Shown here: in pieces, positions 2,690 through 62,438 of the stretch
How positions within the stretch are numbered: the first letter of the stretch is position 1
Layout of the letters: every line of letters starts with the position of its first letter
From: Desulfobacteraceae bacterium UBA2174
GTDB taxonomy: Bacteria; Desulfobacterota; Desulfobacteria; Desulfobacterales; UBA2174
Reading direction: 5' to 3'
Assembly (NCBI GenBank): GCA_002327445.1
Contig: DCWA01000019.1
Coordinates: 7,035-71,034 of the forward strand
Length of the DNA stretch: 64,000 nt
Position numbers and translations under genes: made by a program
The notes under the pieces: model-generated
What the model was told of the DNA's origin: nothing
The model's database searches: none
What the model saw: the letters and a program-made list of their open reading frames with translations, nothing else

Positions 2690-2696
2690 TTTTAAA

Positions 2697-2976
2697 TGGA
2701 TGACTTGTATGAACTTGCCGCGGAGGCGGACAAGGTGTTAACTTTTTAAAATGCCGCGACGCCCGGTCCACTTGGTGCGGAGGCGGTTGAGCTGGATTGA
2801 CGGCGGATGTTTATGCAGCGGGCCAAAAGATCGGAAAATCGGCAATGAAAGAAAATGAGGCCATCGTCCGCACGGTGCTGCACCATTATCCCGCGGTCCA
2901 GGGAATTTATCTTTTCGGATCCCGGGCCTCAGGAGACGATCGGCCGGACAGCGATATGGACTTGGCCTTGCTGTTC
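2697..2976. repeat. Copy 1 of a ~280-bp direct repeat (dsrE-like 3' tail remnant + spacer + mntA 5' part)
   Basis: Aligns by eye with 4029-4311 at roughly 85-90% identity, e.g. GAACTTGCCGCGGAGGCGGACAAGGTGTTAACTTTTTAA and GATCGGAAAATCGGCAATGAAAGA. It begins with an orphan reading MDDLYELAAEADKVLTF*. Confidence 0.85.
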
Positions 2977-3674: not shown

Positions 3675-3762
3675 TGCGCACCATCGGTCGCCGTAACCCC
3701 CCGACGGCGAGCAACTCTTCCCCTCGCACAGGGGGGCTTCCCCATTCCCTTGGCCAATACGG

Positions 3763-4085
3763 ATGGCGAATCGATGTGAAAAATTGTTCATCATTACCAG
3801 CGACGACGGCGAGACCATTTACAATGGCATGCGGCTGGCCAACGTGGGGGTCAAGAAGGTCGATGAGGTCGGCGTGTTCATGCTCGGCAATGGGGTGTGC
3901 TTCGCGCAGGCCGGCAGCGAGGCTTACGATGTCATGGGCCAGATCAACGGTTCGGCGGCGATTTTTTCGTCTGAGGGGTCTGCATGAAATCCCACGGTCT
4001 GGTGGGATCCGGCACCTGCCCCATCGGTTGGATGTACGATTTGTACGAACTTGCCGCGGAGGCGGACAAGGTGTTAACTTTTTAA
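3763..4085 (+). pseudogene. DsrE/YchN-like small protein, disrupted: apparent 1-nt frameshift near 3949-3953 plus in-frame TGA (3972-3974) at a conserved Cys position (possible Sec)
   Basis: Frame 1 gives MANRCEKLFIITSDDGETIYNGMRLANVG...MGQING. The frame starting at codon 3954 gives FGGDFFV-TGA-GVCMKSHGLVGSGTCPIGWMYDLYELAAEADKVLTF*. The C-terminal part resembles the ...CGTC...CP...DLY.L...DKV..F tail of DsrE-like proteins, recalled from memory. Confidence 0.6.
3989..4008 (+). promoter_or_regulatory. SECIS-like RNA hairpin downstream of the TGA at 3972
   Basis: 7-bp stem ATCCCAC/GTGGGAT with loop GGTCTG. The loop starts 21 nt after the TGA and begins GGUC, like the E. coli fdhF SECIS apical loop as I recall it. 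Confidence 0.45.
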
Positions 4086-4311
4086 ATACCCGGACGCCCG
4101 GCGCTACTTGGCGCGGAGGCGCTTGAGCCGCGTTGACGGCGGAGGTTCATGCAGCGGGCCAGAAGATCGGAAAATCGGCAATGAAAGACAATGAGGCCAT
4201 CGTCCCCACGGTGTTGCGCCATTGTCCCGCGGTTCAGGGAATTTACCTTTTCGGGTCCCGGGCCTCAGGAGACAATCGGCCGGACAGCGATACGGACTTG
4301 GCCTTGCTGTT
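4029..4311. repeat. Copy 2 of the ~280-bp direct repeat (intact dsrE-like 3' end + spacer + truncated mntA)
   Basis: See copy 1. Similarity ends abruptly after ...GCCTTGCTGTTC at 4311. Confidence 0.85.
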
Positions 4312-4384
4312 CCCCGGTTCAATGCCGGCCTTATGCCATATTGGGCATTTGACATGGTCCTCAAAAAATTCTAAAAACCACTGA
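4133..4384 (+). pseudogene. Truncated second copy of mntA (5' ~45 codons only)
   Basis: MKDNEAIVPTVLRHCPAVQGIYLFGSRASGDNRPDSDTDLALLF matches MntA up to 4311. It then diverges into unrelated sequence and stops, and no hepT partner follows. Confidence 0.75.
4349..4377 (+). promoter_or_regulatory. Candidate sigma-70 promoter for the lysR-family gene
   Basis: TTGACA (4349-4354), 17-nt spacer, TAAAAA (4372-4377). About 45 nt upstream of the ATG at 4422. Confidence 0.35.
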
Positions 4385-7650: not shown

Positions 7651-8082
<432 letters not shown>

Positions 8083-8132
8083 CTTCGGAGATCTTCCTTT
8101 CCTGTCGGGATCATCATAGCCGGCGTCACGCG

Positions 8133-8939
8133 CTATGAACGAACCGCCGGCTTGACGGCATGGATGTCGGCGGAAACCACGAAGTCGGCGACATTGGTTC
8201 CCGGCGCCCACTCTCGGATAAACGTCCTGCTTTCCTCCTTGGGCGTCACCCGGATGTCGACAAACCCGCAGCCCTGCAACATGGCCTCGACTTCCGCGAT
8301 CAACGAAGCCCCGGCGATGCAACCGGCGTGAAGGGCCAGGTCCTGGCGCACGGCATCGGGCAACTGGGCGGTGGCCACCACATCGGAGACCGCCAGCCGG
8401 CCGCCGGGCTTGAGGGCCCGGTAGATCTCGGCAAAGACGCGGGGCTTGTCCGGCGAGAGATTGATAACGCAATTGGAAATCACCACATCCGCCGTGTTGT
8501 CGGCCACGGGCAGGTTTTCGATTTCGCCCAGGCGAAACTCCACGTTGCCATGCCCTGTCTTGGCCGCGTTGGCCCGGGTGCGGGAAATCATTTCAGGGGT
8601 CATGTCCACCCCGATCACCCGGCCCGTTTCCCCCACCTGGCGTGCGGCCAGGAAACAGTCGAACCCGCCGCCGCTGCCCAGATCGAGCACCACTTCGCCG
8701 GGTTTCAAAGCCGCGATGGCCTGGGGGTTGCCGCAGCCGAGCCCCAGGTTGGCCCCCTCGGGCACGGCGCCGACCTCCTCGGGGCTGTAGCCGAGGGCCC
8801 GGGAGATGCTGGCGGCATCCACCGCCGGGGCGCCGCAGCAGCCCGGGGCGCAGCCGCAACCGGACTGGCGGGTGTCAACAATCTGGCTGTAGCGCTGGCG
8901 CACGACCTGGCGGATTTCGTCTTTTTTCAAGATTTCCAT
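8133..8939 (-). CDS. arsM: Arsenite S-adenosylmethionine methyltransferase
   Basis: N-terminal Cys cluster SGCGCAPGCCG, SAM motif VLDLGSGGGFDCF, and ...ISNCVINL. Located between acr3 and arsC. ATG at 8939 (MEILKKDEI). Confidence 0.8.
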   Translation of the reverse strand: MEILKKDEIRQVVRQRYSQIVDTRQSGCGCAPGCCGAPAVDAASISRALGYSPEEVGAVPEGANLGLGCGNPQAIAALKPGEVVLDLGSGGGFDCFLAARQVGETGRVIGVDMTPEMISRTRANAAKTGHGNVEFRLGEIENLPVADNTADVVISNCVINLSPDKPRVFAEIYRALKPGGRLAVSDVVATAQLPDAVRQDLALHAGCIAGASLIAEVEAMLQGCGFVDIRVTPKEESRTFIREWAPGTNVADFVVSADIHAVKPAVRS

Positions 8940-8956
8940 CACATTCTCCTTTACTG

Positions 8957-10048
8957 TTACGCCTTGCAGGTGACATGGCAAACCCCGGTTGGGGTTTTGA
9001 CCGCGTAGGGGAAATATCTGCGCTTGAACCACAGGGCCACGTTGACCAGCGCGATGAGCACCGGCACCTCCACCAAGGGACCGATCACGGCGGCAAAGGC
9101 TTCCCCCGAGTTGATGCCGAACACGGCCACGGCCACGGCGATGGCCAGCTCGAAGTTGTTGGAAGCGGCGGTGAACGACAAGGTGGTGGCCTGCTCGTAG
9201 GTGGCCTTGAACTTCATGGACATGAAGAAGCTGAGCAGGAACATGACGAGAAAATAGATGCACAGCGGAATGGCGATGCGCACCACGTCCAAGGGCAGCT
9301 TGACGATGTATTCGCCCTTGAGCGAGAACATCACCACGATGGTGAACAGCAGGGCGACCAGGGTCAGGGGGCTGATTTTGGGGATGAAGTATTCATGATA
9401 CCACTTTTCCCCTTTGGTCTTCAGGCCGATGATGCGGGTGATCAGACCGGCGATAAACGGGATGCCCAGATAGATGAAGACGCTTTCGGCGATCTGGCCG
9501 ATGGTGATGTCGACCACGGCGCCTTGGATCCCGAACCATCCGGGCAGGATGGTGATGAAAAACCAGGCGTAAACCGAGAAGAACAGCACCTGGAAGATGG
9601 AGTTGAAGGCCACCAGACCGGCGCAATACTCGGCGTCGCCCTTGGCCAGATCGTTCCAGACCAGCACCATGGCGATGCAGCGCGCCAGGCCGATCATGAT
9701 CAGGCCCACCATGTATTCGTGGTGGCCGGAGAGAAAGGCGATGGCCAGCAGGAACATCAGGATCGGGCCGATGATCCAGTTCTGCGCCAGCGACAGGGTG
9801 AGGATCTTCCCATCTTGAAAGACGAAGCCCAGCTTCTCGTAGCGCACCTTGGCCAGGGGCGGGTACATCATCAGGATCAGGCCCGCGGCGATGGGCAAGT
9901 TGGTGGTGCCCACCTGGAAGATGTTGATGAAATCGCGCACCCCCGGATACAGGTAGCCGCCGAAGACCCCCACGGCCATGGCCAGGAAGATCCACAGGGT
10001 GAGAAAGCGATCCAGAAAGCTCAGGTGCTTGATGGTGGAATCGGTCAT
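8957..10048 (-). CDS. acr3: ACR3-family arsenite efflux permease
   Basis: [27 protein letters not shown]...[12 protein letters not shown]...[13 protein letters not shown] is typical of Acr3. ATG at 10048. Confidence 0.85.
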
Positions 10049-10105
10049 CTGCGTTTTTCCTTTTCCTGATCGATGCGCGGTCGCAGACGAGCGCGACAAC
10101 GGCGC

Positions 10106-10459
10106 CTATTTGCCGCACACCTCATCGCAGCCGGTCTTCATCACTTGCGCCAGGCGTTGCCGGTCTTCCAGAATCGTGGGGTTGTCCTTCAGGGCGTCGA
10201 GCAACCAGGCCAGCGCAGAACGGGCCGCCTGGGGGGCCTGGGCACCGGCCAGCCGGTAGTACATCCAGCGGCCATTCTTCCGCCCCTCGATCAACCGGGC
10301 ACTGCGTAAAATCGAAAGGTGCTTGCTGACGGTGGAAGGCGCCAGCCCGATCAACTCGATGAGCTGGCATACGCACAGCTCGCCGTCCCGCAAGGCGGCC
10401 AACAGGCGAACCCGGGTTTGATCGGCCAGGGCTTTGGTCACGGCCATGATTTGGAACAT
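10106..10459 (-). CDS. arsR: ArsR-family repressor of the ars operon
   Basis: ...LADQTRVRLLAALRDGELCVCQLIELIGLAPSTVSKHLSIL (ELCVC metalloid-site-like). ATG at 10459 is preceded by AGGAGG. The track start at 10489 would lie inside the operator palindrome. Confidence 0.8.
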   Translation of the reverse strand: MFQIMAVTKALADQTRVRLLAALRDGELCVCQLIELIGLAPSTVSKHLSILRSARLIEGRKNGRWMYYRLAGAQAPQAARSALAWLLDALKDNPTILEDRQRLAQVMKTGCDEVCGK

Positions 10460-10481
10460 CGCGGCCTCCTGTAAAGCTTTT

Positions 10482-10523
10482 CCATCCACTATAATTCGTT
10501 ATTTGGCGAATTATAGTGGATGG
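10482..10523. promoter_or_regulatory. Perfect 17-bp inverted repeat with 8-bp spacer: candidate ArsR operator
   Basis: CCATCCACTATAATTCG (10482-10498) and CGAATTATAGTGGATGG (10507-10523) are exact reverse complements. They sit 23-64 nt upstream of the arsR ATG. Confidence 0.7.
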
Positions 10524-10631
10524 AAATTAACCCCTGCGGTTTTCGCTGTCAACAGGCAATCGTTGTCTTACCTGGAAATTTCTGTCGCGGCCGCGATCAT
10601 CGGAGGGCTTTTCTGCTAAAAACCAAGCACA

Positions 10632-11210
10632 TCAAACAGTTCGAGGAGTCGACTGCCCAGCTTCTTGACCGAATCGTATAGGTTTTTTCGCCATAGGGCT
10701 GCACCCGTGGCAATCCTTGCAATCATCCTGAAAAGGAGATGAATTGTTGAACCGTGATGCCGCCTCAAGCCGGGACATGCGGATGCGCTCGATGGCTGGC
10801 AGGTTTTCGGCTGAAAACCGTTTGAAAATCAGCACCCCGCCGATGATTCCCGAAAACAAAAGGGCGGCTGAAATGGAAAGGCCGGCGCCGAAATCACGAG
10901 AGAAGCCGTGGGTTAAGGACCAGGCAAGGGCGATGGCCAGCGTCAGCCCGACCAGAGGTGGCCCCAATCCGGCCGCAGCATTTCTCAATAAAGTGCCTGA
11001 ATGCAGGCTGACGACAACCTGATCCCCCACCTGCGCCCCGACGGGGTTGAGGGCCTCCACCGTGAAGGAACTCCCGCCGGACGTACAATGGCAGACCCGT
11101 CTGTTCACCTCGCCGGAAACCCCCGGAATGCCGGGACTCCCGGGCTCAATGACGACCTCGGCCTTGCCGTCGGCCTTCAGCGTGGCGATATATCCCTCAT
11201 ATTCCGGCAT
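10632..11210 (-). CDS. RseC/MucC-family (SoxR-reducing system type) membrane protein
   Basis: N-terminal beta-rich domain with Cys (RRVCHCTSGG) followed by two TM helices. GGAGG RBS upstream of the ATG at 11210. The C-terminal Cys motif is unusual. Confidence 0.5.
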   Translation of the reverse strand: MPEYEGYIATLKADGKAEVVIEPGSPGIPGVSGEVNRRVCHCTSGGSSFTVEALNPVGAQVGDQVVVSLHSGTLLRNAAAGLGPPLVGLTLAIALAWSLTHGFSRDFGAGLSISAALLFSGIIGGVLIFKRFSAENLPAIERIRMSRLEAASRFNNSSPFQDDCKDCHGCSPMAKKPIRFGQEAGQSTPRTV

Positions 11211-11286
11211 GTCGGATTACCTCCGTTTTCGTTTCCATGCGATTCAATTCTCTTGGATATCAAGCGTATCCTTTCCTGCTTGACGC

Positions 11287-12063
11287 TTACATACGGACAA
11301 ACGGGTTGGTAATGAAGTAAATTCCCAACAGCCCGACGACAGCCCCGGAGCCGCGCTGAAACCACAGGCCGGCTCCCTGCCAGGCGCTGTTTTCGGTAAT
11401 GCGTCGCACCATGGCGGTGGAGCTGCCGGCTACGGCGATGGGCATACAGTGGCCCAGGGCAAAGAGAATCATCATCAGCGCGCCGGCGAAGATCTTCTGC
11501 TGCACGGTGACGATGGCCAGGATGGGTGCGATGAAACCGAAGGTGCACGATCCGGACAAAACCCCGTAGGCCAACCCCAAGCCGAAGGCCCCGTGGATGC
11601 CGCGCAGATTGAGCCGGTAGAGCAGGGAGCCGGACATGGAGCAGGCATGGACACCGAGCATGCCCAGGGCCACCCAGACGAGTACCGCGCCCACCAGCAC
11701 CTGCCACCCGTCGCCCACGACACCGAGCATGCGGCCCAGATAGGCGCAGACGATGCCCACCACCGCGATGGTGAGGAACAGGCCAAGGGAAAAGGCGCCG
11801 GCGTATTCCCGTTTGAGTTCCTCGATGATGGGCGCCATCATCTTGCAAGGAACGCACGAATCGACGCCTAGGTCGATCATCGTGACTCGCCCGGGAGACG
11901 GGGCGTCGGCGACACGGGAGACGGCCTGGCGCGGCTGACCGGCAGCCGGCGCGGTGGCCTCCGGTCCGACCTTAGGGCCCTCGGGCTTCACCAGGAAAAA
12001 GGCGACGGCCGCTGCTGCAACAGCCAGGACCAGGGGTATCGTCCACTTGGCCTTTTGTCGCAT
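11287..12063 (-). CDS. Fusion protein: signal anchor + N-terminal fragment of a thioredoxin fold (CVPC) joined to a CcdA/DsbD-like multi-TM domain
   Basis: VTMIDLGVDSCVPCKMMAPIIEELKREYAG is the beta1-CxxC-alpha1 portion of a thioredoxin. It runs directly into about 5 TM helices with SGSC and GHC motifs. Confidence 0.55.
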   Translation of the reverse strand: MRQKAKWTIPLVLAVAAAAVAFFLVKPEGPKVGPEATAPAAGQPRQAVSRVADAPSPGRVTMIDLGVDSCVPCKMMAPIIEELKREYAGAFSLGLFLTIAVVGIVCAYLGRMLGVVGDGWQVLVGAVLVWVALGMLGVHACSMSGSLLYRLNLRGIHGAFGLGLAYGVLSGSCTFGFIAPILAIVTVQQKIFAGALMMILFALGHCMPIAVAGSSTAMVRRITENSAWQGAGLWFQRGSGAVVGLLGIYFITNPFVRM

Positions 12064-12171
12064 CGGGAAATATCACCTGTTGGCGAAATTTGAATGGTTG
12101 ATAAATTTAACACGATATTACAGTATGATAGACTGCAATGCGATACCGGCCGGGCCGGAGACGGACCGATT

Positions 12172-12411
12172 TTATTTGATCCACTTCAGGACATCCTCTC
12201 TCTTGGGAATCTTGCCCACCGATTTGACTTCGCCATCCACCACCACCGCGGGAGTGCCGAAGACCCCGTAGCCGGCGATCTGCATCAGGTCGGTGACTTT
12301 TTCTACCTTGGCGGCCACGCCGGCCTCGGCCACCGCTTCCTTGACGATCTTTTCCGTCTGCTGGCATTTGGGGCAGCCCGGGCCCAGTACTTTGATTTCC
12401 ATGGTTTTCAT
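12172..12411 (-). CDS. Thioredoxin_3 family small redox protein (redox-active disulfide protein 2-like)
   Basis: 79 aa: MKTMEIKVLGPGCPKCQQTEK...GVFGTPAVVVDGEV. Confidence 0.8.
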   Translation of the reverse strand: MKTMEIKVLGPGCPKCQQTEKIVKEAVAEAGVAAKVEKVTDLMQIAGYGVFGTPAVVVDGEVKSVGKIPKREDVLKWIK

Positions 12412-12453
12412 TCCTTTAAAATCAATAAGTTAACAATATTCTGGCTTCATTCG

Positions 12454-13629
12454 TCAGCCAAAGAAAGAACCGTAAATCATCCCGGCGATGGTGGACAAAA
12501 CCACAATGATGCCGCAGAAGGTGGCGGTCTTCTTGACCCCCATGACCGAACCGATCACCAGCATGTTGGGCAGAGAAAGCGCAGGACCTGCCAGCAGCAG
12601 GGCCAACGCCGGCCCCTGGCCCATACCCGAACCGATCAACCCTTGTAGAATGGGCACTTCAGTGAGGGTGGCAAAGTACATCAGTGCCCCGGCCACCGCG
12701 GCGATCAGGTTGGCCCACAGCGAGTTGCCCCCCAGCAGCGCCGAGACCCACTGCTCGGGAATCAGCGCCGGGTGCCCGGGGCGACCCAGCATGAAGCCGG
12801 CCACCAGGACCCCGGCGCCCAGCAGCGGGAAGATCTGCTTCATGAAGCCCCAGGTGGAATCGACCCAATCCTTGCACTCGTCGCGGGTGAACCAGGCCTT
12901 GAGCATGAACCCGAGGATGACGAGCAGGGCCACGGTGATGTACCACTTGGCGGCGAAAATCGCCGGCCAGAGACCTGCCGACCCCGCGGCCGGACGTGCA
13001 AAGGCGGCGAAGACCAGGATCAGCACCATGGTGAAAATGTACAAGCCGTCCTGAAGAAGGGTGCGTTCCTTGGCGCCGGCCTCTGGCACGTAGATCTGAC
13101 CAGTGGCGCGGGCGGCATCGTCCTTCCTGAAGATCAGGGCCATGAGCAGGCCGGTGATCACTGCGAAACTCACCGCCCCGACGGCCCGGGCCAAGCCGAG
13201 CTGCCAGCCGAGGATCTTGGCGGTCAACGAGATGGCTAACACGTTGATGGCCGGCCCTGAATAAAGGAAGGCCGTGGCCGGGCCGATGCCTGCCCCGCGG
13301 GCGTAGATGCCGGCAAACAGGGGCAAAACAGTGCAGGAGCAGACCGCCAGGATGGTCCCCGACACCGAGGCCACCGAATAGGAGAGGATCTTGTTCGCCT
13401 GGGCGCCAAAGTATTTGAGTACCGAGGCCTGGGAGATGAATACGGCGATGGCCCCGGCGATGAAAAAGGCCGGAATCAGACAGGTGAGCACATGTTCTCG
13501 GGCGTATTCCTGAAGCATCAGGAAGGCTTCCAGGCCCGACTGGCGGATGACGGGATGGCTCCAGGGGACATAGTAGGCGACCGCAAAAATTCCTAAGATC
13601 CACAATAGCTTGGTACGTTCTTTCATCAT
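12454..13629 (-). CDS. Predicted permease (ArsP_1/DUF318-type)
   Basis: 391 aa polytopic protein with ...AVCSCTVLPLFAGIY... Occurs in the recurrent arsR + permease + thioredoxin_3 arrangement. Confidence 0.65.
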   Translation of the reverse strand: MMKERTKLLWILGIFAVAYYVPWSHPVIRQSGLEAFLMLQEYAREHVLTCLIPAFFIAGAIAVFISQASVLKYFGAQANKILSYSVASVSGTILAVCSCTVLPLFAGIYARGAGIGPATAFLYSGPAINVLAISLTAKILGWQLGLARAVGAVSFAVITGLLMALIFRKDDAARATGQIYVPEAGAKERTLLQDGLYIFTMVLILVFAAFARPAAGSAGLWPAIFAAKWYITVALLVILGFMLKAWFTRDECKDWVDSTWGFMKQIFPLLGAGVLVAGFMLGRPGHPALIPEQWVSALLGGNSLWANLIAAVAGALMYFATLTEVPILQGLIGSGMGQGPALALLLAGPALSLPNMLVIGSVMGVKKTATFCGIIVVLSTIAGMIYGSFFG

Positions 13630-13704
13630 CGCATCACTCCGGCGGCAGGTCCGGTATTTTTATATCGTCATATAACGATACATTAAGGTCAAAAAAATAT
13701 ATCC

Positions 13705-14049
13705 TCACCCCCCGCAGATGGTCTCGCGGCGGATCTGCGGCAGCCGGGCCACCAGGGCCGACACCTGGGGATCGTCCTCCAGCCAGTGGCGCAGATTGCC
13801 CAGGAAGCTGAGCGCGTAGGGGTTCCTTGCATCTTCGGCCAGGCGGTAGTTGACCCACAGACCTTCCTTGGCGTAGGTGATCAATCCGGCGTCTTCCAAT
13901 ATTTTCAGGTGCTTGCTGGCGGTCGACTGGGCCAGGCCCAATGCCTCCTGGATCTCGCAGACGCAGAGCACCCGCCGCTGGAGCAGTTTGAGCATCTTGA
14001 CCCGATTGGGATCGGAGAGGGCCTTGGTCACCTTGATGAATTCCCGCAT
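13705..14049 (-). CDS. ArsR-family transcriptional regulator
   Basis: MREFIKVTKALSDPNRVKMLKLLQRRVLCVCEIQEALGLAQSTASKHLKIL. Confidence 0.8.
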   Translation of the reverse strand: MREFIKVTKALSDPNRVKMLKLLQRRVLCVCEIQEALGLAQSTASKHLKILEDAGLITYAKEGLWVNYRLAEDARNPYALSFLGNLRHWLEDDPQVSALVARLPQIRRETICGG

Positions 14050-15005: not shown

Positions 15006-15036
15006 CAGGGTACGGGTCGCGTAAAATTATTTTATA

Positions 15037-15160
15037 TCTGACGGATCTGACGGATCTGACGGATCTGACGGATCGGACGGATCGGACGGATCTGACGGAT
15101 CGGTCGGTTCGGACGGATCGGTCGGTTCGGCCGGTTCGGTCGGATCAAACGGATCGGCTG
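15037..15160. repeat. 9-bp tandem repeat array, ~13.8 units (consensus TCTGACGGA, degenerating to TCGGTCGGT)
   Basis: I split the sequence by hand into 14 units: four perfect TCTGACGGA, then variants. Unit junctions create 10 GATC sites. Lies between tetR and the mutase gene. Confidence 0.9.
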
Positions 15161-15234: not shown

Positions 15235-17367
<2,133 letters not shown>

Positions 17368-17428
17368 AAACTGGAAATTGGGTCCTTTGAGTCCCTTTTG
17401 TCCTATTTGTTTTTATTAAAGTTGTTAG

Positions 17429-18430
17429 ATGGTATCGATGCTCAGCCAAGACCCCAATTTTTACGTTGAGGGCGTCCTCGCGGGGAACCGCCGCATCCTG
17501 GCCAAGACCATCACCCTGGTGGAAAGCACCCGCCCGGAGCACCAGGATTTGGCCATGGCGGTTCTTGACCGTTTGATCCCCCATACGGGGAAGGCGGTGC
17601 GCCTCGGCATCACCGGGGTGCCCGGCGTGGGCAAGAGCACCTTCATCGAGGCCTTTGGCATGCAGCGCATTGCCGGGGGGCACCGGCTGGCGGTGCTGGC
17701 GGTGGATCCGAGCAGCAGCCGCAGCGGAGGCTCCATTCTGGCCGACAAGACCCGCATGGAGCGGTTGTCCACCGAGCGTAACGCCTTCATCCGGCCATCG
17801 CCTTCGGGTGGCACCCTGGGCGGGGTGACCCGCAAGACCCGCGAGACCATGCTGGTCTGCGAGGCGGCCGGTTTCGACCTGATCATCGTCGAAACCGTTG
17901 GGGTCGGGCAGAGCGAAACCGCCGTGGCCTCGATGGTCGATTTTTTTCTCGTGCTGATGATCGCCGGGGCCGGCGACGAACTTCAGGGCATCAAGAAGGG
18001 CGTGCTGGAACTGGCCGATGCGGTGGTGATCAACAAGGCGGATGGCGACAACCGCCAGCCGGCTGAACTGGCGCGGTGCCAGTACGAAAACGCCTTGCAC
18101 CTGCTCATGCCGGCCTCCGCCTGCTGGCGGGTGCCGGTGATGACGTGCAGCGCCAAGACCGGCGAGGGACTGGAGGCCGTCTGGGAGAAGGTGTGCGAGC
18201 ACCGCGAACGCATGACGGCCAGCCGGGAGCTGGAAGCCAAGCGGCGCAACCAGGCTCTGGCCTGGATGTGGAGCCTCATCGAGGATGGGCTGCGCAAGCG
18301 GTTCCAGCGGAATCCGGAGGTCGGTCGCCTTCTGCCGGTCATCGAGCGCGAAGTGGCCGCCGGCCGCCTCGAAGCCACTCGCGGCGCCGATCGGTTGCTT
18401 TTTTCCCTTGACAAGGCCGGTGCGGTTTAG
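17429..18430 (+). CDS. meaB: MeaB/ArgK G3E GTPase (mutase chaperone)
   Basis: P-loop GVPGVGKSTFIEAFG, then ...VETVGVGQSE...INKADG. Immediately downstream of the mutase. Confidence 0.9.
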   Translation: MVSMLSQDPNFYVEGVLAGNRRILAKTITLVESTRPEHQDLAMAVLDRLIPHTGKAVRLGITGVPGVGKSTFIEAFGMQRIAGGHRLAVLAVDPSSSRSGGSILADKTRMERLSTERNAFIRPSPSGGTLGGVTRKTRETMLVCEAAGFDLIIVETVGVGQSETAVASMVDFFLVLMIAGAGDELQGIKKGVLELADAVVINKADGDNRQPAELARCQYENALHLLMPASACWRVPVMTCSAKTGEGLEAVWEKVCEHRERMTASRELEAKRRNQALAWMWSLIEDGLRKRFQRNPEVGRLLPVIEREVAAGRLEATRGADRLLFSLDKAGAV

Positions 18431-18486
18431 AAGGAGTAACATTTCGGCTGTTTTTTTCACGGCTGTTTCAACGAAAGGATACGATC

Positions 18487-20040
18487 ATGAGCCTGGTGCA
18501 AGACAAGATTCAGGAACTGGAGCAGCGAGCCGCCGCGATCCGGCAGATGGGAGGTGAAGCCGCGGTGGCCAAGCACAAGGAAAAGGGGCGGCTCACGGCC
18601 CGGGAGCGCCTGGCGGCCCTCTTCGACCCGGACACGTTCCGGGAGATCGACATGTTCGTCACCCACCGTTGCGTAAATTTCGGGATGCAGGATGTCGAGA
18701 TTCCCGGCGACGGCGTCATCACCGGTCATGGGCTGGTGGACGGCCGGCCCGTTTTTGCCTTCGCCCAGGATTTCACCAGCCGGGCCGGCAGCCTCGGGGA
18801 AATGCACGCCAAAAAGATCTGCAAGGTGATGGACCTGGCGCTCAAGGCCGGGGTGCCCTTCGTCGGGCTCAACGACTCCGGCGGCGCACGGATTCAGGAA
18901 GGGGTCGACGCCTTGTCCGGTTACGGGCAGATCTTTTACCGCAATTCCCAGGCCTCGGGCACCATCCCCCAGATTTCGGCCATCATGGGGCCGACGGCCG
19001 GCGGTGCGGTCTATTCGCCGGCCATGACCGATTTCATCTTCATGGTCAAGAACACCAGCTACATGTTCATCACCGGCCCCGAGGTGATCAAGTCGGTCAC
19101 CGGCGAGGAAATCACCTTCGAGGACCTCGGCGGCGCCATGACCCACAACGAAAAGAGCGGGGTGGCGCACTTCGCCTGCGATTCGGACGCCGAGGCGCTG
19201 GCGCAGATCCGCGGCCTGCTGTCCTATCTGCCGTCCAACAACATGGAAGATCCGCCCCGGGTGCCGTGCACCGACGACCCTCGGCGCACCGATCCGGCCC
19301 TGGACGCCATCGTGCCCGACATTCCCAACCAGTCCTACGACATGAAGGACGTGATCCGCTCCATCGTGGACAACGGAGATTTCTTCGAACCCCACCAGTA
19401 CTTCGCCCGGAACATGGTGGTCTGTTTCGCCCGGCTCAACGGGCGCACCATCGGCATCATCGCCAACCAGCCGAAGATGTTGGCCGGCTGCCTGGACATC
19501 GACGCCTCGGACAAGGCCACGCGCTTCATCCGGTTCTGCGATGCCTTCAACATTCCGATGCTCACCATCGCCGACGTGCCCGGCTACCTGCCCGGCAGCC
19601 AGCAGGAGTGGGGCGGGATCATCCGCCACGGCGCCAAGCTGCTCTGGTGCTACTCGGAGGCCACGGTGCCCAAGCTCCTGCTGGTCACCCGCAAGGATTA
19701 CGGCGGCTCTTACCTGGCCATGTGCAGCAAGGACCTCGGGGCCGACATGGCCTTCGCCTGGCCCACGGCGGAGATCGCCGTGATGGGGGCCGCCGGTGCC
19801 GCCAACATCATCCATCGCAAGGAGATCAAGGGTGCCGCGGACCCGGCGGCCAAGCGCAAGGAAAAGATCGCCGAGTACGAAACCCTCTTCTCCAATCCTT
19901 ACTGCGCCGCGGCGCGGGGCTACGTGGACGACGTGATCGCGCCCCGGGACAGCCGGCCGCGGCTCATCGAGGCCCTGGAGATCATGTGCAGCAAACGCGA
20001 ACTGCGACCGCCCAAGAAACACGGCAACATTCCGATGTAG
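18487..20040 (+). CDS. Methylmalonyl-CoA carboxyltransferase 12S subunit / propionyl-CoA carboxylase beta-type
   Basis: 517 aa. ...GRLTARERL..LFD..TF.E...GDGVITGHG.VDGRPV..FAQDFT...GSLGE is a typical carboxyltransferase. Confidence 0.9.
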   Translation: MSLVQDKIQELEQRAAAIRQMGGEAAVAKHKEKGRLTARERLAALFDPDTFREIDMFVTHRCVNFGMQDVEIPGDGVITGHGLVDGRPVFAFAQDFTSRAGSLGEMHAKKICKVMDLALKAGVPFVGLNDSGGARIQEGVDALSGYGQIFYRNSQASGTIPQISAIMGPTAGGAVYSPAMTDFIFMVKNTSYMFITGPEVIKSVTGEEITFEDLGGAMTHNEKSGVAHFACDSDAEALAQIRGLLSYLPSNNMEDPPRVPCTDDPRRTDPALDAIVPDIPNQSYDMKDVIRSIVDNGDFFEPHQYFARNMVVCFARLNGRTIGIIANQPKMLAGCLDIDASDKATRFIRFCDAFNIPMLTIADVPGYLPGSQQEWGGIIRHGAKLLWCYSEATVPKLLLVTRKDYGGSYLAMCSKDLGADMAFAWPTAEIAVMGAAGAANIIHRKEIKGAADPAAKRKEKIAEYETLFSNPYCAAARGYVDDVIAPRDSRPRLIEALEIMCSKRELRPPKKHGNIPM

Positions 20041-20078
20041 CCGCCGGGCCAAACGCGATGTCAAAGACGGGAGCAACC

Positions 20079-20300
20079 ATGGATACCAAGAAGATGGCGG
20101 CCGTCGGCGCGGCGGTCTTGCAATACATCCGCAGCGAGGAGGAGGCCCTCATGGCCAGCCTGTCGCTGGCACGGATGGCGGCGCCAGCCCCCCAGATCCC
20201 GCTGGCAGCCAAACCCTGGGCGTTCAATGGCCGGCAGCAGCAGATGGAGATGCGCAACCTGATGCAGCTGCGGATCTTCGCCGGGGCAAGGCTCAGATAA
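20079..20300 (+). CDS. Small operon-internal ORF, possibly an OadG-like/epsilon-type accessory subunit of the biotin enzyme
   Basis: 73 aa. GGAG lies 7 nt upstream of the ATG at 20079. MDTKKMAAVGAAVLQYIRSEEEA...PWAFNGRQQQMEMRNLMQLR resembles small subunits next to carboxyltransferases, from weak memory. It lies inside an alternate-frame track ORF. Confidence 0.4.
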   Translation: MDTKKMAAVGAAVLQYIRSEEEALMASLSLARMAAPAPQIPLAAKPWAFNGRQQQMEMRNLMQLRIFAGARLR

Positions 20301-20305
20301 AAAAA

Positions 20306-20441
20306 AGTTACAAGTGACGAGTGAGCTAAAGTGACTAAAGTGAAGCCGCGCCCCGGGAGGCGGCTCTCTACAAGAAGAAAACAGGCGCGAAGCGCTTCCA
20401 CAACTTTAGCTCACTTTAGGCATTCGACACTTTAGCTCACT
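20306..20441. repeat. Composite intergenic element A: AAAGTGAC/AAAGTGAGCT-type tandem units, unique core, then the inverted units (CTTTAGCTCAC)
   Basis: Left GTGAGCTAAAGTG is the exact complement of right CACTTTAGCTCAC, which is present twice. The core holds small GC hairpins (GCCGC...GCGGC; GCGC-GAA-GCGC). Confidence 0.8.
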
Positions 20442-20472
20442 TTTCTTTCGATTTTTTTAAAAGGAGAATCCC

Positions 20473-22521
20473 ATGAGCGACCACGACCAGTTGAAATTGA
20501 CGGCGATGAACTATGCTCCGGACCGTCCCAAGGCGGACAACCCGGTCAAGATCGAGGATTTGAGTCTGCGTGACGGTCACCAGAGCCTGTTCGCCACCCG
20601 CGGGCGCACCGAGGACATGATTCCGGTGGCCGAGCTGATGGACCAGGTGGGTTTCTGGGCCATGGAGGTCTGGGGCGGCGCGACCTTCGACACGATGCAC
20701 CGGTTCTTGAACGAGGATCCCTGGGAGCGGATCCGCACCCTGAAGCGCTACATCAAGAAAACGCCGTTTTCGATGCTGCTGCGCGGTCAAAATCTGGTGG
20801 GCTACCGCAACTACGCCGATGACGTGGCCGAGGTCTTCGTGGAACGGGCCGCGGAAAACGGGATGGACATCTTCCGGACCTTCGACGCCCTCAACGACTA
20901 CCGCAATTTCGAGACCGTAGTGCCGGTGATCAAGCGTTGCGGCAAGCATTTCCAGGGCTGCATCTGCTACAGCCTCACCGAGCCGCGTCTCGGCGGTGAG
21001 GTGTATAACATCGATTACTATGTCTCCAAGGCCAAGGACTTGCAGGCCATGGGGGCCGACAGCGTCTGCATCAAGGACATGGCCGGTCTCATCGCGCCCT
21101 ACGACGCCTACGCGATCGTCAAGGCGATCAAGCAGGTGGTGACAGTGCCGGTTCACCTGCATAGCCACTTCACCTCGGGCATGAGCGCCATGAGCCACCT
21201 GAAGGCCATCGAGGCGGGGGTGGATATCGTGGACACCTGCATGTCGCCATACGCCTTCCGCACGAGCCACCCGGCCATCGAGCCGCTGGTGATGGGCCTG
21301 ATCGGCACCAACCGCGACACGGGCTTCGACATCCGGCTCCTGGCCCGGATCAACGACATTTTGGAGAAGCAGGTGATGCCGAAGTACCGGCACCTGCTTG
21401 ACGACACCAAGATGTCGATCATCGACATCAACGTGCTGCTGCACCAGACCCCGGGCGGGATGTTGAGCAACCTGGTCAACCAGTTGCGCGAGATGGACAA
21501 ACTGGACAAGATCGACGAGGTCTTCAAGGAGTTGCCGCGGGTGCGCAGGGAACTGGGGCAGGTGCCGCTGGTGACCCCGACCAGCCAGATCGTGGGGATC
21601 CAGACGGTCAACAACGTGCTCTTCGACGACGAGAACGAGCGCTACAAGATGATCACCGCCCAGGTGAAGGACCTGTGCTACGGCCTGTACGGCAAGACGG
21701 CGATCCCCATCGACCCGGAGGTCCAGAAGAAGGCATTGAAGGGTTACGCCCGGGGCGAGGAGCCCATCACCTGCCGCCCGGCCGAGGTTCTGGAGCCCGA
21801 GCTGCCCAAAGCCAAAAAAGAGATCGGCGACTTGGCGGTGGATACCGACGACCTGATCACGTACGCCCTGTATCCCGTGACGGGCAAACGCTTCCTCAAC
21901 TGGAAGTACGGCAAGGAGCCGGTGCCCGAGGAGGTGCGTCCCATCACCCTGGAGCAGGTGCACCAACGCCAGGAATTGGTCAAGAAGGCGCTGGCCGGCG
22001 AATTGGTGGAAAAGCCCGCCAAGGAGGCCCCGGAAAAGAGCGCCTCGGCCCGGACCTTCAACGTCTTCGTGGACGGCGAATACTTCGAGGTGGGCGTCGA
22101 CGAGGTGGGGGGCAGCCCGGTGCTGAGCTACATCCAGCAGATGTCGATGATGCCGACGGCGCCGATGGCGCCGATGGCCGCCGTGCCGATTGCCGCCGCG
22201 CCGATGGCGGCGGCACCGAAACCGGCCCCTGCGGCGCCGGCGCCTCGGCCGGCCCCGGAAGCCAAGGCGGAAGCCTCCAAGGCGGCAGCGCCGGCGGGCG
22301 CGGTCTCCGGAACTCCGCTCACCGCGCCCATGCCGGGGATGATCGTCAGCGTGGCCAAGAATGTGGGCGACACCGTGGAAAAGGGCGATACGGTGATCGT
22401 GCTGGAGGCGATGAAGATGGAAAACGCCCTGCCGGCGCCGGTGAGCGGGAAGATCAAGGCGATCAACGTGGCCCAGGGCGCCAGCGTGGCCAAGGGGGCC
22501 GTGCTGGCGGTGATCGGCTAG
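20473..22521 (+). CDS. Transcarboxylase 5S-type carboxyltransferase (oxaloacetate decarboxylase alpha-like) fused to a biotin carboxyl-carrier domain
   Basis: 682 aa. ...IEDLSLRDGHQSL.. is the TIM-barrel pyruvate carboxyltransferase domain. An Ala/Pro-rich linker leads to a C-terminal biotinyl domain with EAMKMEN. Confidence 0.9.
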   Translation: MSDHDQLKLTAMNYAPDRPKADNPVKIEDLSLRDGHQSLFATRGRTEDMIPVAELMDQVGFWAMEVWGGATFDTMHRFLNEDPWERIRTLKRYIKKTPFSMLLRGQNLVGYRNYADDVAEVFVERAAENGMDIFRTFDALNDYRNFETVVPVIKRCGKHFQGCICYSLTEPRLGGEVYNIDYYVSKAKDLQAMGADSVCIKDMAGLIAPYDAYAIVKAIKQVVTVPVHLHSHFTSGMSAMSHLKAIEAGVDIVDTCMSPYAFRTSHPAIEPLVMGLIGTNRDTGFDIRLLARINDILEKQVMPKYRHLLDDTKMSIIDINVLLHQTPGGMLSNLVNQLREMDKLDKIDEVFKELPRVRRELGQVPLVTPTSQIVGIQTVNNVLFDDENERYKMITAQVKDLCYGLYGKTAIPIDPEVQKKALKGYARGEEPITCRPAEVLEPELPKAKKEIGDLAVDTDDLITYALYPVTGKRFLNWKYGKEPVPEEVRPITLEQVHQRQELVKKALAGELVEKPAKEAPEKSASARTFNVFVDGEYFEVGVDEVGGSPVLSYIQQMSMMPTAPMAPMAAVPIAAAPMAAAPKPAPAAPAPRPAPEAKAEASKAAAPAGAVSGTPLTAPMPGMIVSVAKNVGDTVEKGDTVIVLEAMKMENALPAPVSGKIKAINVAQGASVAKGAVLAVIG

Positions 22522-22684
22522 CAAAGTGCCTAAAGTTACGAGTGCCTACAGTTGCAAGTGCCTAAAGTGACGAGTGACTAAAGTGCCTAAAGTTAAGGAA
22601 TTCTGCCATCTCAAATACAGGGGGGCAGTGCCCCCCTTAACTTTAGGTCCCTTTGGTCCCTGAAGTCCTTTACGTCCTTTTCCC
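22522..22684. repeat. Composite intergenic element B: AAAGTGCCT/AAAGTTACGA units, GC hairpin core, right arm switching to GTCCCTTT-type units
   Basis: CCTAAAGTTAAGG (left) pairs with CCTTAACTTTAGG (right). The core hairpin is GGGGGGC-AGT-GCCCCCC. The right arm reads GGTCCCTTTGGTCCCTGAAGTCCTTTACGTCCTTTT. Confidence 0.8.
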
Positions 22685-22707
22685 AAAAGTTTCACAAGGA
22701 GTTAAAA

Positions 22708-23868
22708 ATGAAAATCCACGAATACCAGGCCAAGGAGCTTTTTGGCCGGTACGATGTCCCCATCCCCGCGGGGCGGGCCGCCTTTTCGGTCGACGAGGCC
22801 GTGGCTGCCGCAGATGCCCTCGGGGGGTATCCGGTGGTCGTCAAGGCCCAGATCCACGCCGGCGGCCGCGGGAAGGGCGGCGGCGTGAAGCTGGCCCGTA
22901 GCGCCGGGGATGTGACGACGGTGGCCGGACAGATCCTCGGCATGACCCTGGTGACCCATCAGACCGGGCCTGAAGGCCGGCTGGTCAAAAAGGTGCTGGT
23001 GGAGCAGGGCCTCGATATCGCCAAGGAGCTGTACCTGAGCCTCCTGCCCGACCGCGGCAGCGCCAAGTACCTCATCATGGCCAGCGAGGCGGGCGGGATG
23101 GACATCGAGAAAGTGGCTGCCGAAACGCCGGAAAAGATCGTCAAGGTATGGGTCGATCCGCTCATCGGGCTCCAGTCCTTTCATGTGCGCGAGGTCGGTT
23201 TCGGCCTGAACCTGCCGCCGGCGGCGATGAAGCCGTTTACCAAGCTGCTGACGAACCTGTTCAGGCTCTTTGTCGAGCTGGATTGCTCCCTGGTGGAAAT
23301 CAACCCCTTGGTGCTTACCGCCGACGACCGGGTCCTGGCCCTGGACGCCAAAATCAACTTCGACGACAACGCCCTCTATCGCCACAAGGACATCCTCGCG
23401 TACCGCGACCTGGACGAGGAAGATCCCCTGGAGGTGGAGGCCTCGGCCCACCACCTCAACTATATCAAACTCGATGGCAACGTGGGCAACATGGTCAACG
23501 GCGCCGGCCTGGCCATGGCGACCATGGACATCATCAAGCGCGCCGGGGCATCGCCGGCCAATTTTCTGGACGTCGGCGGCGGGGCCAGCGCCGAGATGGT
23601 GGAGAACGGTTTCCGCATCATCCTCTCGGACCCCAACGTCAAGGGGATTTTGATCAACATCTTCGGCGGCATCCTGCGCTGCGACGTGCTGGCCCAAGGG
23701 GTGGTGGAAGCCGCCAAGAAGACCAGGGTCAGCGTGCCGGTGGTCGTGCGCATGGAGGGGACCAACGTCGAGGAGGGACGGCGCATCCTGGCCGAATCGG
23801 GACTCGACCTGACCGGTGCGGTGGATCTGAAGGATGCGGCGGCCAAAGTGGCCAGTATTGTGAAGTGA
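22708..23868 (+). CDS. sucC: Succinyl-CoA synthetase beta subunit
   Basis: [20 protein letters not shown]...[19 protein letters not shown]. Confidence 0.95.
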
Positions 23869-24103
23869 CTAAAGTTACGAGTGACTAAAGTTACGAGTGA
23901 CTAAAGTGACTAAAGTTTAAAGTGGCTAAAGTTCTTTTAGGGGAAGGATTCGACGATTCAAATTGCCGGAGCGAAGCGACTCCTGAACTTTAGGCACTTT
24001 AGTTCACTTTAGGCACTTTAGTTCACTTTAGGCACTTTAGGCACTTTAGCTCACTTTAGGCACTTTAGCTCACTTTAGGCACTTTAGTTCATTTTAGACA
24101 CTT
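23863..24103. repeat. Composite intergenic element C (largest): ~7 AAAGTGACT/AAAGTTACGAGTGACT units, core, then ~12 inverted CTTTAGGCA/CTTTAGTTCA/CTTTAGCTCA units
   Basis: Read directly. The left arm starts at the sucC stop codon. The arms are about 90% complementary unit-for-unit: AGTGACTAAAGT vs the reverse complement AGTGCCTAAAGT. Confidence 0.85.
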
Positions 24104-24123
24104 CCTATCCGAAAGGGTTTCGC

Positions 24124-25002
24124 ATGAGCATCTTCGTCAACGCAGACACCCGTGTCCTGGTGCAGGGCATCACCGGGCGCGAGGGGCAATTCCACACCCG
24201 CCAGTGCCTCGCCTATGGCACCCGGGTGGTGGCCGGGGTCACGCCGGGCAAGGGCGGGCAAAAAATGGATGAGGTGCCGGTCTTCGACACCGTGCGTCAG
24301 GCCATGGCCGCCACCGGCGCCAACTGCAGCCTGATCTTCGTTCCGCCGCCCTTTGCCGCCGATGCCATCCTGGAGTCGGCGGAAGCCGGCATATCGGTCA
24401 TCGTGGCCATCACCGAAGGGATTCCGGTGATGGACATGCTGAAGGTCAAAAATTTCATTCAAAACAAGATGCTGCGCCTCATCGGGCCCAACTGCCCGGG
24501 GATCATCACGCCAGGTGCCTGCAAGATCGGCATCATGCCGGCGGCGATCCACAAACCCGGCGGCCCCATCGGGGTCGTTTCCCGTAGCGGGACACTGACC
24601 TACGAGGTAGTTCACCAGCTCACCGGCCAGGGGATCGGTCAGACCACTTGCATCGGCATCGGCGGCGATCCGGTCAACGGGACCAACTTCATCGACTGCC
24701 TCAAGGCGTTCGAAGAAGACCCGGATACCCGGGGCATCGTGATGGTGGGAGAGATCGGCGGTTCAGCCGAGGAAGAGGCCGCGGCCTGGATCGCGGCCAA
24801 TGGGTCCAAGCCGGTGGTGGGGTTCATCGCCGGGCTCACCGCCCCCCCGGGCCGCCGCATGGGCCACGCCGGGGCCATCGTCAGCGGGGGCAGCGGTACC
24901 GCCGAGGGCAAGATCGCTGCCATGCGACAGAGCGGGATCGCGGTCTGCGAGGACCTGGGCACCCTGGGCGAGATGTGCAAGAGGGTGTTTGGCAAAAGCT
25001 GA
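24124..25002 (+). CDS. sucD: Succinyl-CoA synthetase alpha subunit
   Basis: [25 protein letters not shown]...SRSGTLTYE...GIGGDP...GHAGAI. Confidence 0.95.
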
Positions 25003-25490: not shown

Positions 25491-26285
25491 ATGCCGTTTT
25501 CCCTGTTTCGCACCGTCATCCGCCGCCACCATGACCACGGCCGTCCCCATCACCATCCCCACGACCACTCCCATGAGGATCATGAGACGGTGCGTTCCGG
25601 CGCGGGTCGGGAAATCAAGGTAGTGCGCCGGGTCCTGGACGCCAACGACCGGATGGCCCAGGCCAACCGCCGCCTCTTCGCTGCGCACAACATCTTCGTG
25701 CTCAACGTGATGAGTTCCCCCGGATCCGGCAAGACCACCGTTTTGATGCGCACCTTGGGCCAGTTGATGCCCGACCTGCGCTGCGCGGTGATCGTGGGCG
25801 ACATCTGCTCTACCCTGGACGCCGACCGGTTGTCCGTTTCCGGGGCGCCAGTGGTTCAGGTCAACACGGACGAATTCGGCGGCGACTGCCACCTGGCGGC
25901 CCACGTCATCGAACGGGCCGCAGCCGAGCTTCCGCTGGACGATCTCGATGTGCTGATCGTGGAAAACGTGGGGAACCTCGTCTGCCCGGCGGAGTTCGAC
26001 ATCGGCGAGGACCGGCGCGTGGTGATCCTCAGCACCACCGAGGGCGAGGAGAAGCCGATCAAATATCCGCTGATGTTCCGGCTCTGCCAGGCCACGCTGC
26101 TCAACAAGATCGACTTGCTCCCCTACCTGGATTACGACCGCCAGCTGGCGCTCAGGAACATCCGCCAGATCCAACCGGACATGTCCATCTTCGAACTCTC
26201 CGCCAAGACCGGCGAGGGCTTCGATCCCTGGATCGCCTGGCTCAGGTCCCAGATCGCTGCCAAGCGGGGCACCGCCAAGGGTTGA
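25491..26285 (+). CDS. hypB: Hydrogenase maturation GTPase HypB (His-rich N-terminus)
   Basis: HHDHGRPHHHPHDHSHEDHE, P-loop SSPGSGKTT, then ...ENVGNLVCPA... Confidence 0.9.
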   Translation: MPFSLFRTVIRRHHDHGRPHHHPHDHSHEDHETVRSGAGREIKVVRRVLDANDRMAQANRRLFAAHNIFVLNVMSSPGSGKTTVLMRTLGQLMPDLRCAVIVGDICSTLDADRLSVSGAPVVQVNTDEFGGDCHLAAHVIERAAAELPLDDLDVLIVENVGNLVCPAEFDIGEDRRVVILSTTEGEEKPIKYPLMFRLCQATLLNKIDLLPYLDYDRQLALRNIRQIQPDMSIFELSAKTGEGFDPWIAWLRSQIAAKRGTAKG

Positions 26286-27480: not shown

Positions 27481-27661
27481 GAAATGGGTCTCCTTTTGCC
27501 CGGCTTGCCCGTCCGGCCGAAGCATGGCGCCGGCAAATCCGGGGTGATGTGAGCATCTCCGAGACAGGATGGCGGAAAACCGGGTGTGCCAAATCCCTCA
27601 GGCGGCGAGGATCCTCCTTTCTTCGATCGAATGGACTGCGGACAATGCCAGTCCCGCCCGG

Positions 27662-62112: not shown

Positions 62113-62354
62113 TGGAAATCGGGATGCCGACGCTCAAGGACATGCGGGAAGGGCAGGAGGCCGTCATCGTCCGGGTGGGGGGCAACGGCGCCCTCCGGCG
62201 GCGCCTCCTGGAAATGGGGCTGCGCAGCGGCGCGCGGATTCGCATCGAAAAATACGCCCCCTTGCGGGATCCCTTGGAACTGGTGGTCAATGCGATGCAC
62301 GTCTCCCTGCGCGTGGAGGAAGCCGCGCAGATCGAGGTCGATCCGGCCGCGTGA
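62112..62354 (+). CDS. feoA: FeoA
   Basis: ...LKDMREGQEAVIVRVGGNGALRRRLLEMGLRSGARIRIEKYAPLRDPLELVV.. Confidence 0.85.
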   Translation: MEIGMPTLKDMREGQEAVIVRVGGNGALRRRLLEMGLRSGARIRIEKYAPLRDPLELVVNAMHVSLRVEEAAQIEVDPAA

Positions 62355-62438
62355 TGCCGTCGGCGGCTGCTCCGGTATTCCAGAATTCGTGATCCCGTCA
62401 GCATCCATTTCGTTTATTGCGCCGCACAGGAACCGCTC

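Follow-up and report, generated by a model that had tools for sequence, protein, structure and literature searches.

Whether the dsrE-like gene at positions 3763-4085 of a 64-kb stretch of DNA from Desulfobacteraceae bacterium UBA2174 (the whole stretch analysed, hereafter the window) still encodes a selenoprotein is the question raised by this locus, where a TGA codon and a SECIS-like hairpin are found downstream of a break in the reading frame. The sequence comparisons presented here make it highly probable that the copy at 3763-4085 was recently inactivated and is now a pseudogene of a known family, the DsrE-like UxxC selenoproteins of sulfate-reducing and syntrophic Thermodesulfobacteriota. 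The copy would be unable to make the selenoprotein because of a 1-nt deletion and replacements at near-invariant residues, and its UGA and SECIS would still be perfect because the lesion is young.

The translated ORF on the forward strand (3763..3987) has a product of 74 aa, MANRCEKLF...MGQINGSAAIFSSEGSA*, composed of 62 N-terminal DsrE-like residues and 12 out-of-frame residues (GSAAIFSSEGSA), and is terminated by an out-of-frame TGA at 3985-3987. A second frame, one base back, runs from 3951 as FGGDFFV-TGA-GVCMKSHGLVGSGTCPIGWMYDLYELAAEADKVLTF to the TAA at 4083-4085. Within this ancestral frame, all on the forward strand, the codons FGGDFFV (3951..3971) represent the conserved strand F-x-G-D-F-Y/F-V that runs into the active site, and 77 homologues show little or no variation at its G, D and F. 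The ancestral Sec codon, the TGA at 3972..3974 and the U of U-G-V-C, is followed by GGG GTC TGC and is now outside the translated frame. The ancestral C-terminal 36 codons (GVCMKSHGL...ADKVLTF) and the TAA stop occupy 3975..4085, part of which is listed separately by gene callers as a 33-aa ORF (3984-4085). The two frames, with the C-terminal third reached by a -1 shift, are seen in the sequence exactly as the preliminary description had them.

Alignments to the intact syntenic relative L005 located a 1-nt deletion at 3949..3950 (+), the placement being ambiguous within 3947-3951. The intact closest relative reads ATCAACCAGTTCGAC where the window has ATCAA-CGGTTCGGC, with 1 nt missing in the window. 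Written in codons, this closest relative (P0007) reads ATC AAC CAG TTC GAC GGC GAT TTT TAT GTC TGA against ATCAA-CGGTTCGGCGGCGATTTTTTCGTCTGA in the window, and one base has therefore been lost in the window. The codon 8 positions before the Sec codon, encoding Q, K, R or G in homologues, is cut to GG, and with the deletion at 3949-3950 a continuous frame from start codon through TGA to stop is absent from the window copy.

Joining the two frames gave a conceptual product of 107 aa. The frame-corrected product matched Pfam DsrE (PF02635) with E = 4.6e-8 and 33.7 bits against a cut-off of 22.7 bits, and this, together with the YchN/DsrE fold matches given below, confirmed the DsrE-like identity first proposed from the letters of the sequence. 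A search of 5.8 billion protein clusters found 189 close relatives, nearly all 66 aa long and ending in ...F(E/G)GDF(Y/F)V, and therefore cut off at the same TGA codon. Five 'full-length' cluster entries carried Trp at the Sec position (VWGVCMKSHGL) because the gene caller had read TGA as Trp. A scan of one genome per species gave 151 relatives, and the best 80 of these were from Thermodesulfobacteriota MAGs and isolates, e.g. Desulfosarcina variabilis, D. widdelii and strain NaphS2. The Sec column was TGA in 93 of the 93 loci examined and a Cys codon in none, and the frame 3′ of the TGA was conserved in the related loci as GVCMKSHGL(E/V)GSSxCPI(G/A)WMDDLYEL..EADKVLTF*. The intact member L080 also has TGA there, reading GNFYV-TGA.

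An exhaustive profile search detected distant full-length homologues of 106-107 aa, with 36-50% identity, which carry the motif A-C-G-T-C. Their first Cys is in the TGA column and their second Cys is invariant, in agreement with the earlier suggestion that the TGA takes the place of the first Cys of C-G-x-C. These Cys-containing proteins resemble the frame-corrected window product in fold, in length and in having CGxC in the same column, but differ from the window in their modest identity, in Cys for Sec and in being without SECIS. The Val codon immediately 5′ of the TGA (3969-3971 in the window) was GTC in 73 of 76 homologues (entropy 0.28, at a four-fold degenerate codon), which suggests that the 5′ context of the UGA may be under constraint besides the hairpin.

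The AlphaFold2 model of a family member (pLDDT 92.8) consisted of one alpha/beta domain, in which the Sec position falls where strand 63-67 ends and helix 68-73 starts. The active-site Cys or Sec of DsrE/TusD/YchN-fold proteins is located at the strand-to-helix junction. The best solved matches to the model were YchN (1jx7), a Sulfolobus DsrE/DsrF-like protein (3mc3), DsrEFH (2hy5) and TusBCD (2d1p); a sequence profile search of the PDB gave a match to VapB only, which was due to chance, and it was the fold search that succeeded. DsrE of DsrEFH, TusD of TusBCD (2hy5, 2d1p) and YchN (1jx7) have the same alpha/beta fold as the window family, with a Foldseek probability of 1.0 and TM of 0.66-0.85, whereas sequence identity to them is 9-20%. 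The family is unlike DsrEFH and TusBCD in being a stand-alone protein of ~103 aa with no DsrF/H or TusB/C partners encoded, and unlike DsrE, TusD and YchN in its CGxC/UGxC motif and third Cys (C-P-I).

The selenoprotein family to which the window gene belongs has been known since 2005. The DsrE-like protein selenoprotein family (PF02635, UxxC) was reported in the Sargasso Sea survey of Zhang, Fomenko & Gladyshev 2005 (PMC1088965), a DsrE-like selenoprotein is listed for Desulfovibrio vulgaris (PMC1794560), and a 2026 review gives WP_014524487.1 as an example (PMC13188914), so that the preliminary description was correct in pointing to a published DsrE-like selenoprotein family. Compared by features, the window copy shares with this family the Pfam domain, the U-x-x-C motif, deltaproteobacterial (Thermodesulfobacteriota) hosts and a SECIS directly after the UGA with a G in the small apical loop, and is unlike it in the 1-nt deletion 8 codons before the UGA and in the near-invariant replacements. 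The frame-corrected product also had a weak NCBIfam match to the C-terminal region of YedF (E = 5.6e-4), a protein whose DsrE-like C-terminal domain (TIGR03527) has a CGxC motif (PMC5322559). The 19.8 bits obtained are far under the 110-bit YedF cut-off, and the gene is therefore not a YedF; the match covered profile positions 123-192 only and no N-terminal domain, and YedF, unlike the window gene, has an extra N-terminal TusA/SirA-like domain.

Two other members of the family showed changes of their own. In Desulfobacteraceae bacterium UBA2771 (L081:4001-4309) a premature TAA (VMC*INQF) was found upstream of the Sec codon and the SECIS loop was altered to GGGATA, not GGTCTG; pseudogenisation may have occurred here a second time, independently, unless the changes are errors of the MAG. 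In an 80-aa protein from JGI (P0010, on a 141-kb contig) ...LFEQAG is joined straight to MKSHGLEGSS..., an internal deletion that takes out the Sec codon together with the conserved strand before it.

The hairpin of the window is located at 3989..4008 on the forward strand and is the same element as in intact homologues. Its 7-bp stem ATCCCAC/GTGGGAT (ATCCCAC at 3989-3995 and GTGGGAT at 4002-4008) encloses the loop GGTCTG (3996-4001). The hairpin begins 14 nt after the UGA, and from the TGA to the first loop G there are 21 nt; the hairpin at 3989-4008 and the 21-nt distance are exactly as in the preliminary description. The 24-nt hairpin alone stood out in folding (-11.6 kcal/mol, z = -2.77, with equal folding in 4 of 200 shuffles), whereas the 49-nt context after the TGA folded the same as shuffles (z = 0.02), and the element is therefore backed by conservation and not by energy. 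A near-invariant block AAATCCCACGGTCTGG(A/T)GGGATC was present in 75 distinct 72-nt homologue segments, and the nearly invariant 23-nt SECIS block of the family can be written AAAUCCCACGGUCUGGWGGGAUC. The RNAalifold consensus included the 3989-4008 hairpin. For the 7-bp structure, 90% of cells were paired against 25-54% with slid partners, and 0 of 500 shuffles were as high. Pair 25-42 was compensatory, with U-A changed to G-C together in four sequences. The inner A-U pair was found in the Val variant only (26 of 75 segments, including the window), the Glu variant having an A.A mismatch at this position.

The strongest evidence for a SECIS is the freeze of synonymous sites. Among 77 homologues the normalised synonymous codon entropy at codons +5 to +12 after the TGA was 0.13 compared to 0.82 elsewhere (Mann-Whitney p = 2.8e-6), and TCC, CAC, GGT and GAG were the sole or near-sole codons over the hairpin block. 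Rfam gave no relevant match, either with gathering thresholds on the whole window or with permissive E-values on 3700-4200. Judged by conservation, compensation and frozen synonymous sites, the hairpin is a real SECIS, as had been proposed. The comparison of its loop with that of E. coli fdhF, made in the preliminary description, was upheld in genomes: the 46-nt E. coli fdhF SECIS segment, which lies within fdhF in 5419 of the 5426 E. coli genomes, shares the GGTCTG hexamer with the window. Both are hairpins within the coding sequence just after the UGA, with the in-frame hexamer GGUCUG (Gly-Leu) and GGUC at the loop. Counted from the U of the UGA the loop G is nt 22 in fdhF and nt 25 in the window, the fdhF hexamer being one codon closer. 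The fdhF SECIS has a bulged-U stem, whereas the window stem is a perfect 7-bp helix and most homologues have the A.A mismatch.

The frameshifted 74-aa product (P0006) was present in NCBI, JGI, ENA and Logan assemblies. The identical deletion was identified in JGI 3300035312, 3300035377, 3300001580 and 3300002703, in NCBI GCA_002403345.1 and in Logan SRR36367043 and SRR5324155, that is, in at least 7 independent datasets as counted in assembled sequences, and the contig of SRR5324155 with the deletion was present in 11 samples. The DNA of the gene was identical in one JGI metagenome, the MAG GCA_002403345.1, two Logan assemblies and two older JGI metagenomes. A further JGI contig (L095) had the same deletion and two nonsynonymous changes, F9L and E17A, the latter striking a near-invariant Glu. 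An un-shifted version of the window allele was absent among the matches of the 5.8-billion-cluster search. The closest relative, P0007, is intact, was found in 24 contigs and has the same neighbourhood (DnaJ, methyltransferase, MntA, HepT), and the shift was absent from the sister lineage (L005-L014) and from the 80 species-level relatives. From these alignments and assemblies the frameshift is taken to be a genuine 1-nt deletion and not a sequencing error.

Four replacements were confined to the window lineage: A22G (Ala in 77 of 77 homologues), G33V (Gly in 76 of 77), K43N (Lys in 74 of 77) and D92Y (Asp in 76 of 77). The intact sister has the consensus residue at all four positions. The window copy and its sister differed by 12 nonsynonymous and 11 synonymous substitutions, accumulated over two lineages, and the resulting dN/dS of 0.27 was above the values of all 1179 intact homologue pairs, which had a median of 0.074 and a maximum of 0.24; it is raised, yet far from 1. 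No disabling change is present in the TGA, in the SECIS or anywhere in the downstream frame, and decay is therefore read from the upstream lesion and the substitutions rather than from wholesale erosion. The 74-aa fragment is without one of the five predicted beta-strands (E99-102), has out-of-frame residues in place of E63-67, and is also without two of the five helices, the U-x-x-C motif and third Cys and hence the whole active-site motif, and the last third of the fold. Sequencing error and genuine decay had both been offered for the frameshift in the preliminary description; the former failed and the latter stood, given the at least 7 datasets, the replacements and the dN/dS. The concern raised there that the gene might prove a pseudogene turned out to be justified for function, because the deletion occurs in at least 7 datasets with extra replacements and a raised dN/dS, whereas family identity and the recoding signal stand.

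Several other explanations of the locus were weighed against this one. If the TGA were an ordinary stop, the family protein would end at 66-70 aa, the small ORF behind it would be unrelated, and current annotations would be right. Nearly all database entries do terminate at the TGA and Rfam reports no element here, but the frame is kept across the TGA in 93 of 93 loci, the Cys homologues are undivided proteins of 106 aa that carry Cys in the TGA column, the model folds as one compact domain, synonymous sites over the hairpin are frozen, and the family is in the literature as a selenoprotein (PMC1088965, PMC1794560, PMC13188914). The probability left to an ordinary stop is negligible, and for the family this reading is effectively refuted. 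It is very improbable that the missing base is a sequencing or assembly artefact, with the gene intact in the cell and a normal DsrE-like selenoprotein made. The flawless remainder of the gene, including TGA and SECIS, and the origin of many sources in metagenome assemblies would fit such an error, but one and the same deletion recurs in at least 7 datasets, which come from different projects and were assembled with different programs, the site AACGGTT has no long homopolymer, the sister lineage assembles intact in its 24 contigs, and the four replacements of near-invariant residues are inexplicable by sequencing error.

Recoding could also be imagined to rescue a truly shifted gene, either by programmed -1 ribosomal frameshifting or by transcriptional slippage in the T6 run at 3962-3967, restoring the frame before the UGA. 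The shift required is indeed -1, the T6 run is located between the deletion and the UGA, and a stable SECIS hairpin follows ~20 nt downstream. Nevertheless, the canonical X_XXY_YYZ heptamer is absent from the 0 frame of 3763-3987, the nearest being T_TTT_TCG at 3963. A shift in the T run would give GSAAIF instead of the conserved xF(E/G)GDF, and as a slip in T6, the only homopolymer, replaces the near-invariant G-D-F, the normal protein would not be restorable. The shift occurs in none of the 80 species-level relatives nor in the sister lineage, and the T5-T6 run is ancestral to the family (GAT TTT TAY). A T5-T6 run is too short for efficient RNA polymerase slippage. We consider restoration of the frame extremely improbable, and see an equally faint chance that a selenoprotein is still made by the two recoding events needed. 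Low-level compensation by a -1 ribosomal slip or RNA-polymerase slippage in U6, 5-10 nt before the UGA, is just as remote; if true, one short mRNA would need both a frameshift and UGA-to-Sec recoding to give the variant selenoprotein …INGSAAIFFV-U-GVC…, and the SECIS hairpin would double as a downstream frameshift stimulator. Finally, the gene could be split and not dead, if a new function preserved either the N-terminal fragment of 74 aa or the C-terminal ORF of 33 aa. The allele with the frameshift has become fixed and occurs widely among samples, and both pieces are annotated by gene callers; the fragment, however, is without strand E99-102, two helices and the active-site motif of a single-domain fold, its E63-67 strand is swapped for out-of-frame residues, the replacements are at residues near-invariant in the family, and L095, the variant allele, has two further changes that are both nonsynonymous. 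Retention for a new function is very improbable.

The decoding steps that we propose for intact members, and their absence from the pseudogene of the window, may be depicted as follows, the former on the basis of what is established for Sec decoding in bacteria. SelB-GTP-Sec-tRNA(Sec) would, in intact members, bind the hairpin that starts 14 nt after the UGA, and the UGA would be decoded as selenocysteine. The predicted product is a single-domain protein of ~103 aa with the DsrE/YchN fold and a third Cys that lies 12 residues beyond its U-G-V-C centre. U-G-V-C would be placed where a beta-strand ends and a helix starts, the usual place of a redox or sulfur/selenium-transfer active site. For the window lineage the consequences can be read directly from the sequence: with the base lost upstream, ribosomes read GSAAIFSSEGSA and stop at 3985-3987. 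The lost base is 8 codons upstream, and ribosomes therefore pass the UGA out of frame, so that it is never in the A site in frame.

The surroundings of the gene contain traces of a rearrangement. A direct repeat of 281 nt is present on the forward strand in two copies of 88% identity. Copy 1 (2696..2976) comprises a dsrE 3′ end, a spacer and the 5′ part of mntA, and copy 2 (4032..4312) takes in the final 54 nt of the dsrE-like gene and also the start of a truncated copy of mntA, which follows the frameshifted gene as ORF 4133-4384 (+) in the ORF list. As the repeat includes the last 54 nt of the dsrE-like gene, a second dsrE-like copy, a 3′ remnant of 17 codons (MDDLYELAAEADKVLTF*), is found at 2696..2749 (+), where it was matched by tblastn. 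This remnant is located between the methyltransferase stop and mntA, is common to the intact lineage L005, and keeps the ancestral Asp where the main copy has Tyr. The simplest reading of the repeats is a tandem duplication of dsrE-mntA-hepT, of which both ends were probably eroded afterwards. The repeats flanking the gene were also considered as integron cassettes, a reading that was set aside because the eroded tandem duplication is simpler. Short Logan contigs were seen to break at the 281-nt repeats.

An ArsR-type regulator (1219-1605) and a DnaJ-domain protein (1673-1996), both on the forward strand, have relatives that recur upstream of the dsrE-like gene elsewhere. In the loci compared (L015-L094, about 0.7-1.2 kb upstream of the gene), an ArsR-type HTH regulator was found upstream on the same strand in 23 of 79 loci, and either an uncharacterised protein of 88 aa (17 loci) or a protein with a DnaJ domain (7 loci) was also found there. 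In the window lineage a methyltransferase and the MntA/HepT toxin-antitoxin pair are inserted between ArsR/DnaJ and the dsrE-like gene. In the window the gene is found beside genes for ArsC, ArsM, ACR3 and ArsP. ArsC and ArsM are much nearer the dsrE-like gene in the intact sister, whereas a LysR / C_GCAxxG_C_C / TauE block separates it from these two in the window. From this gene neighbourhood, the family may act in redox or transfer reactions that involve metalloids, sulfur or selenium, and the ArsR-type regulators and arsenic-resistance genes constitute a lead for such a putative role.

The arsenic-resistance island itself spans 7651-14049 and contains ArsC (LMW-phosphatase-type), the methyltransferase ArsM, an ACR3 efflux pump, two ArsR, an ArsP_1 permease and a small CxxC thioredoxin-like protein. 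ArsC and ArsM were identified from Pfam families at the syntenic locus L005, and the ACR3 pump, the two ArsR regulators and the thioredoxin-like protein from reading of the ORFs only. Within the island, ORF 11287-12063 on the minus strand has a thioredoxin-like CxxC start (VTMIDLGVDSCVPCKMMAPIIEELKREYAG) followed directly by DsbD_TM (profile positions 49-186 of 219), and may be a fusion or deletion product.

Current understanding is left unchanged by these results, and the window copy agrees with the published picture in which selenoprotein loss is frequent in bacteria. It provides a clean and dated example of such a loss, in which the recoding signals are perfect, the frame is broken and near-invariant residues are changing. 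The family entries in databases are mostly stubs of 66-70 aa that end at the Sec codon, sometimes accompanied by a separate 33-aa ORF, and a family-wide alignment with the invariant TGA, the SECIS block and the Cys homologues could mend those annotations.

ARAGORN detected no tRNA of any kind, selC included, across the 64 kb of the window, and selA, selB and selD were not among the about 40 large window ORFs in Pfam scans. When the window was scanned blindly for other selenoproteins, as a sign of Sec use, in the form of two ORFs with a TGA between them, spurious high-GC ORFs swamped the result. The most promising candidate, the ORF pair 62100-63998, was rejected as its sequence motifs are those of FeoA followed by FeoB. 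A complete methylmalonyl-CoA pathway cluster was found at 15235-25002, encoding a mutase with B12 domain, MeaB, a carboxyltransferase, a biotin-carboxyl-carrier/oxaloacetate-decarboxylase-type subunit, and succinyl-CoA ligase beta and alpha, and points to a propionate-metabolising (syntrophic or sulfate-reducing) deltaproteobacterium. A tandem repeat at 15036-15157, with a 9-nt unit (ATCGGACGG) in 13.6 copies and 84% matches, lies in the spacer immediately preceding the gene for methylmalonyl-CoA mutase (15235-17367). A gene of baeRF family 3 (bacterial eRF1-like) is located on the minus strand at 26329-27525, flanked by a CobW/HypB-type GTPase at 25491-26285 (+) and a class-V aminotransferase/cysteine-desulfurase-like gene at 27662-29167 on the minus strand.
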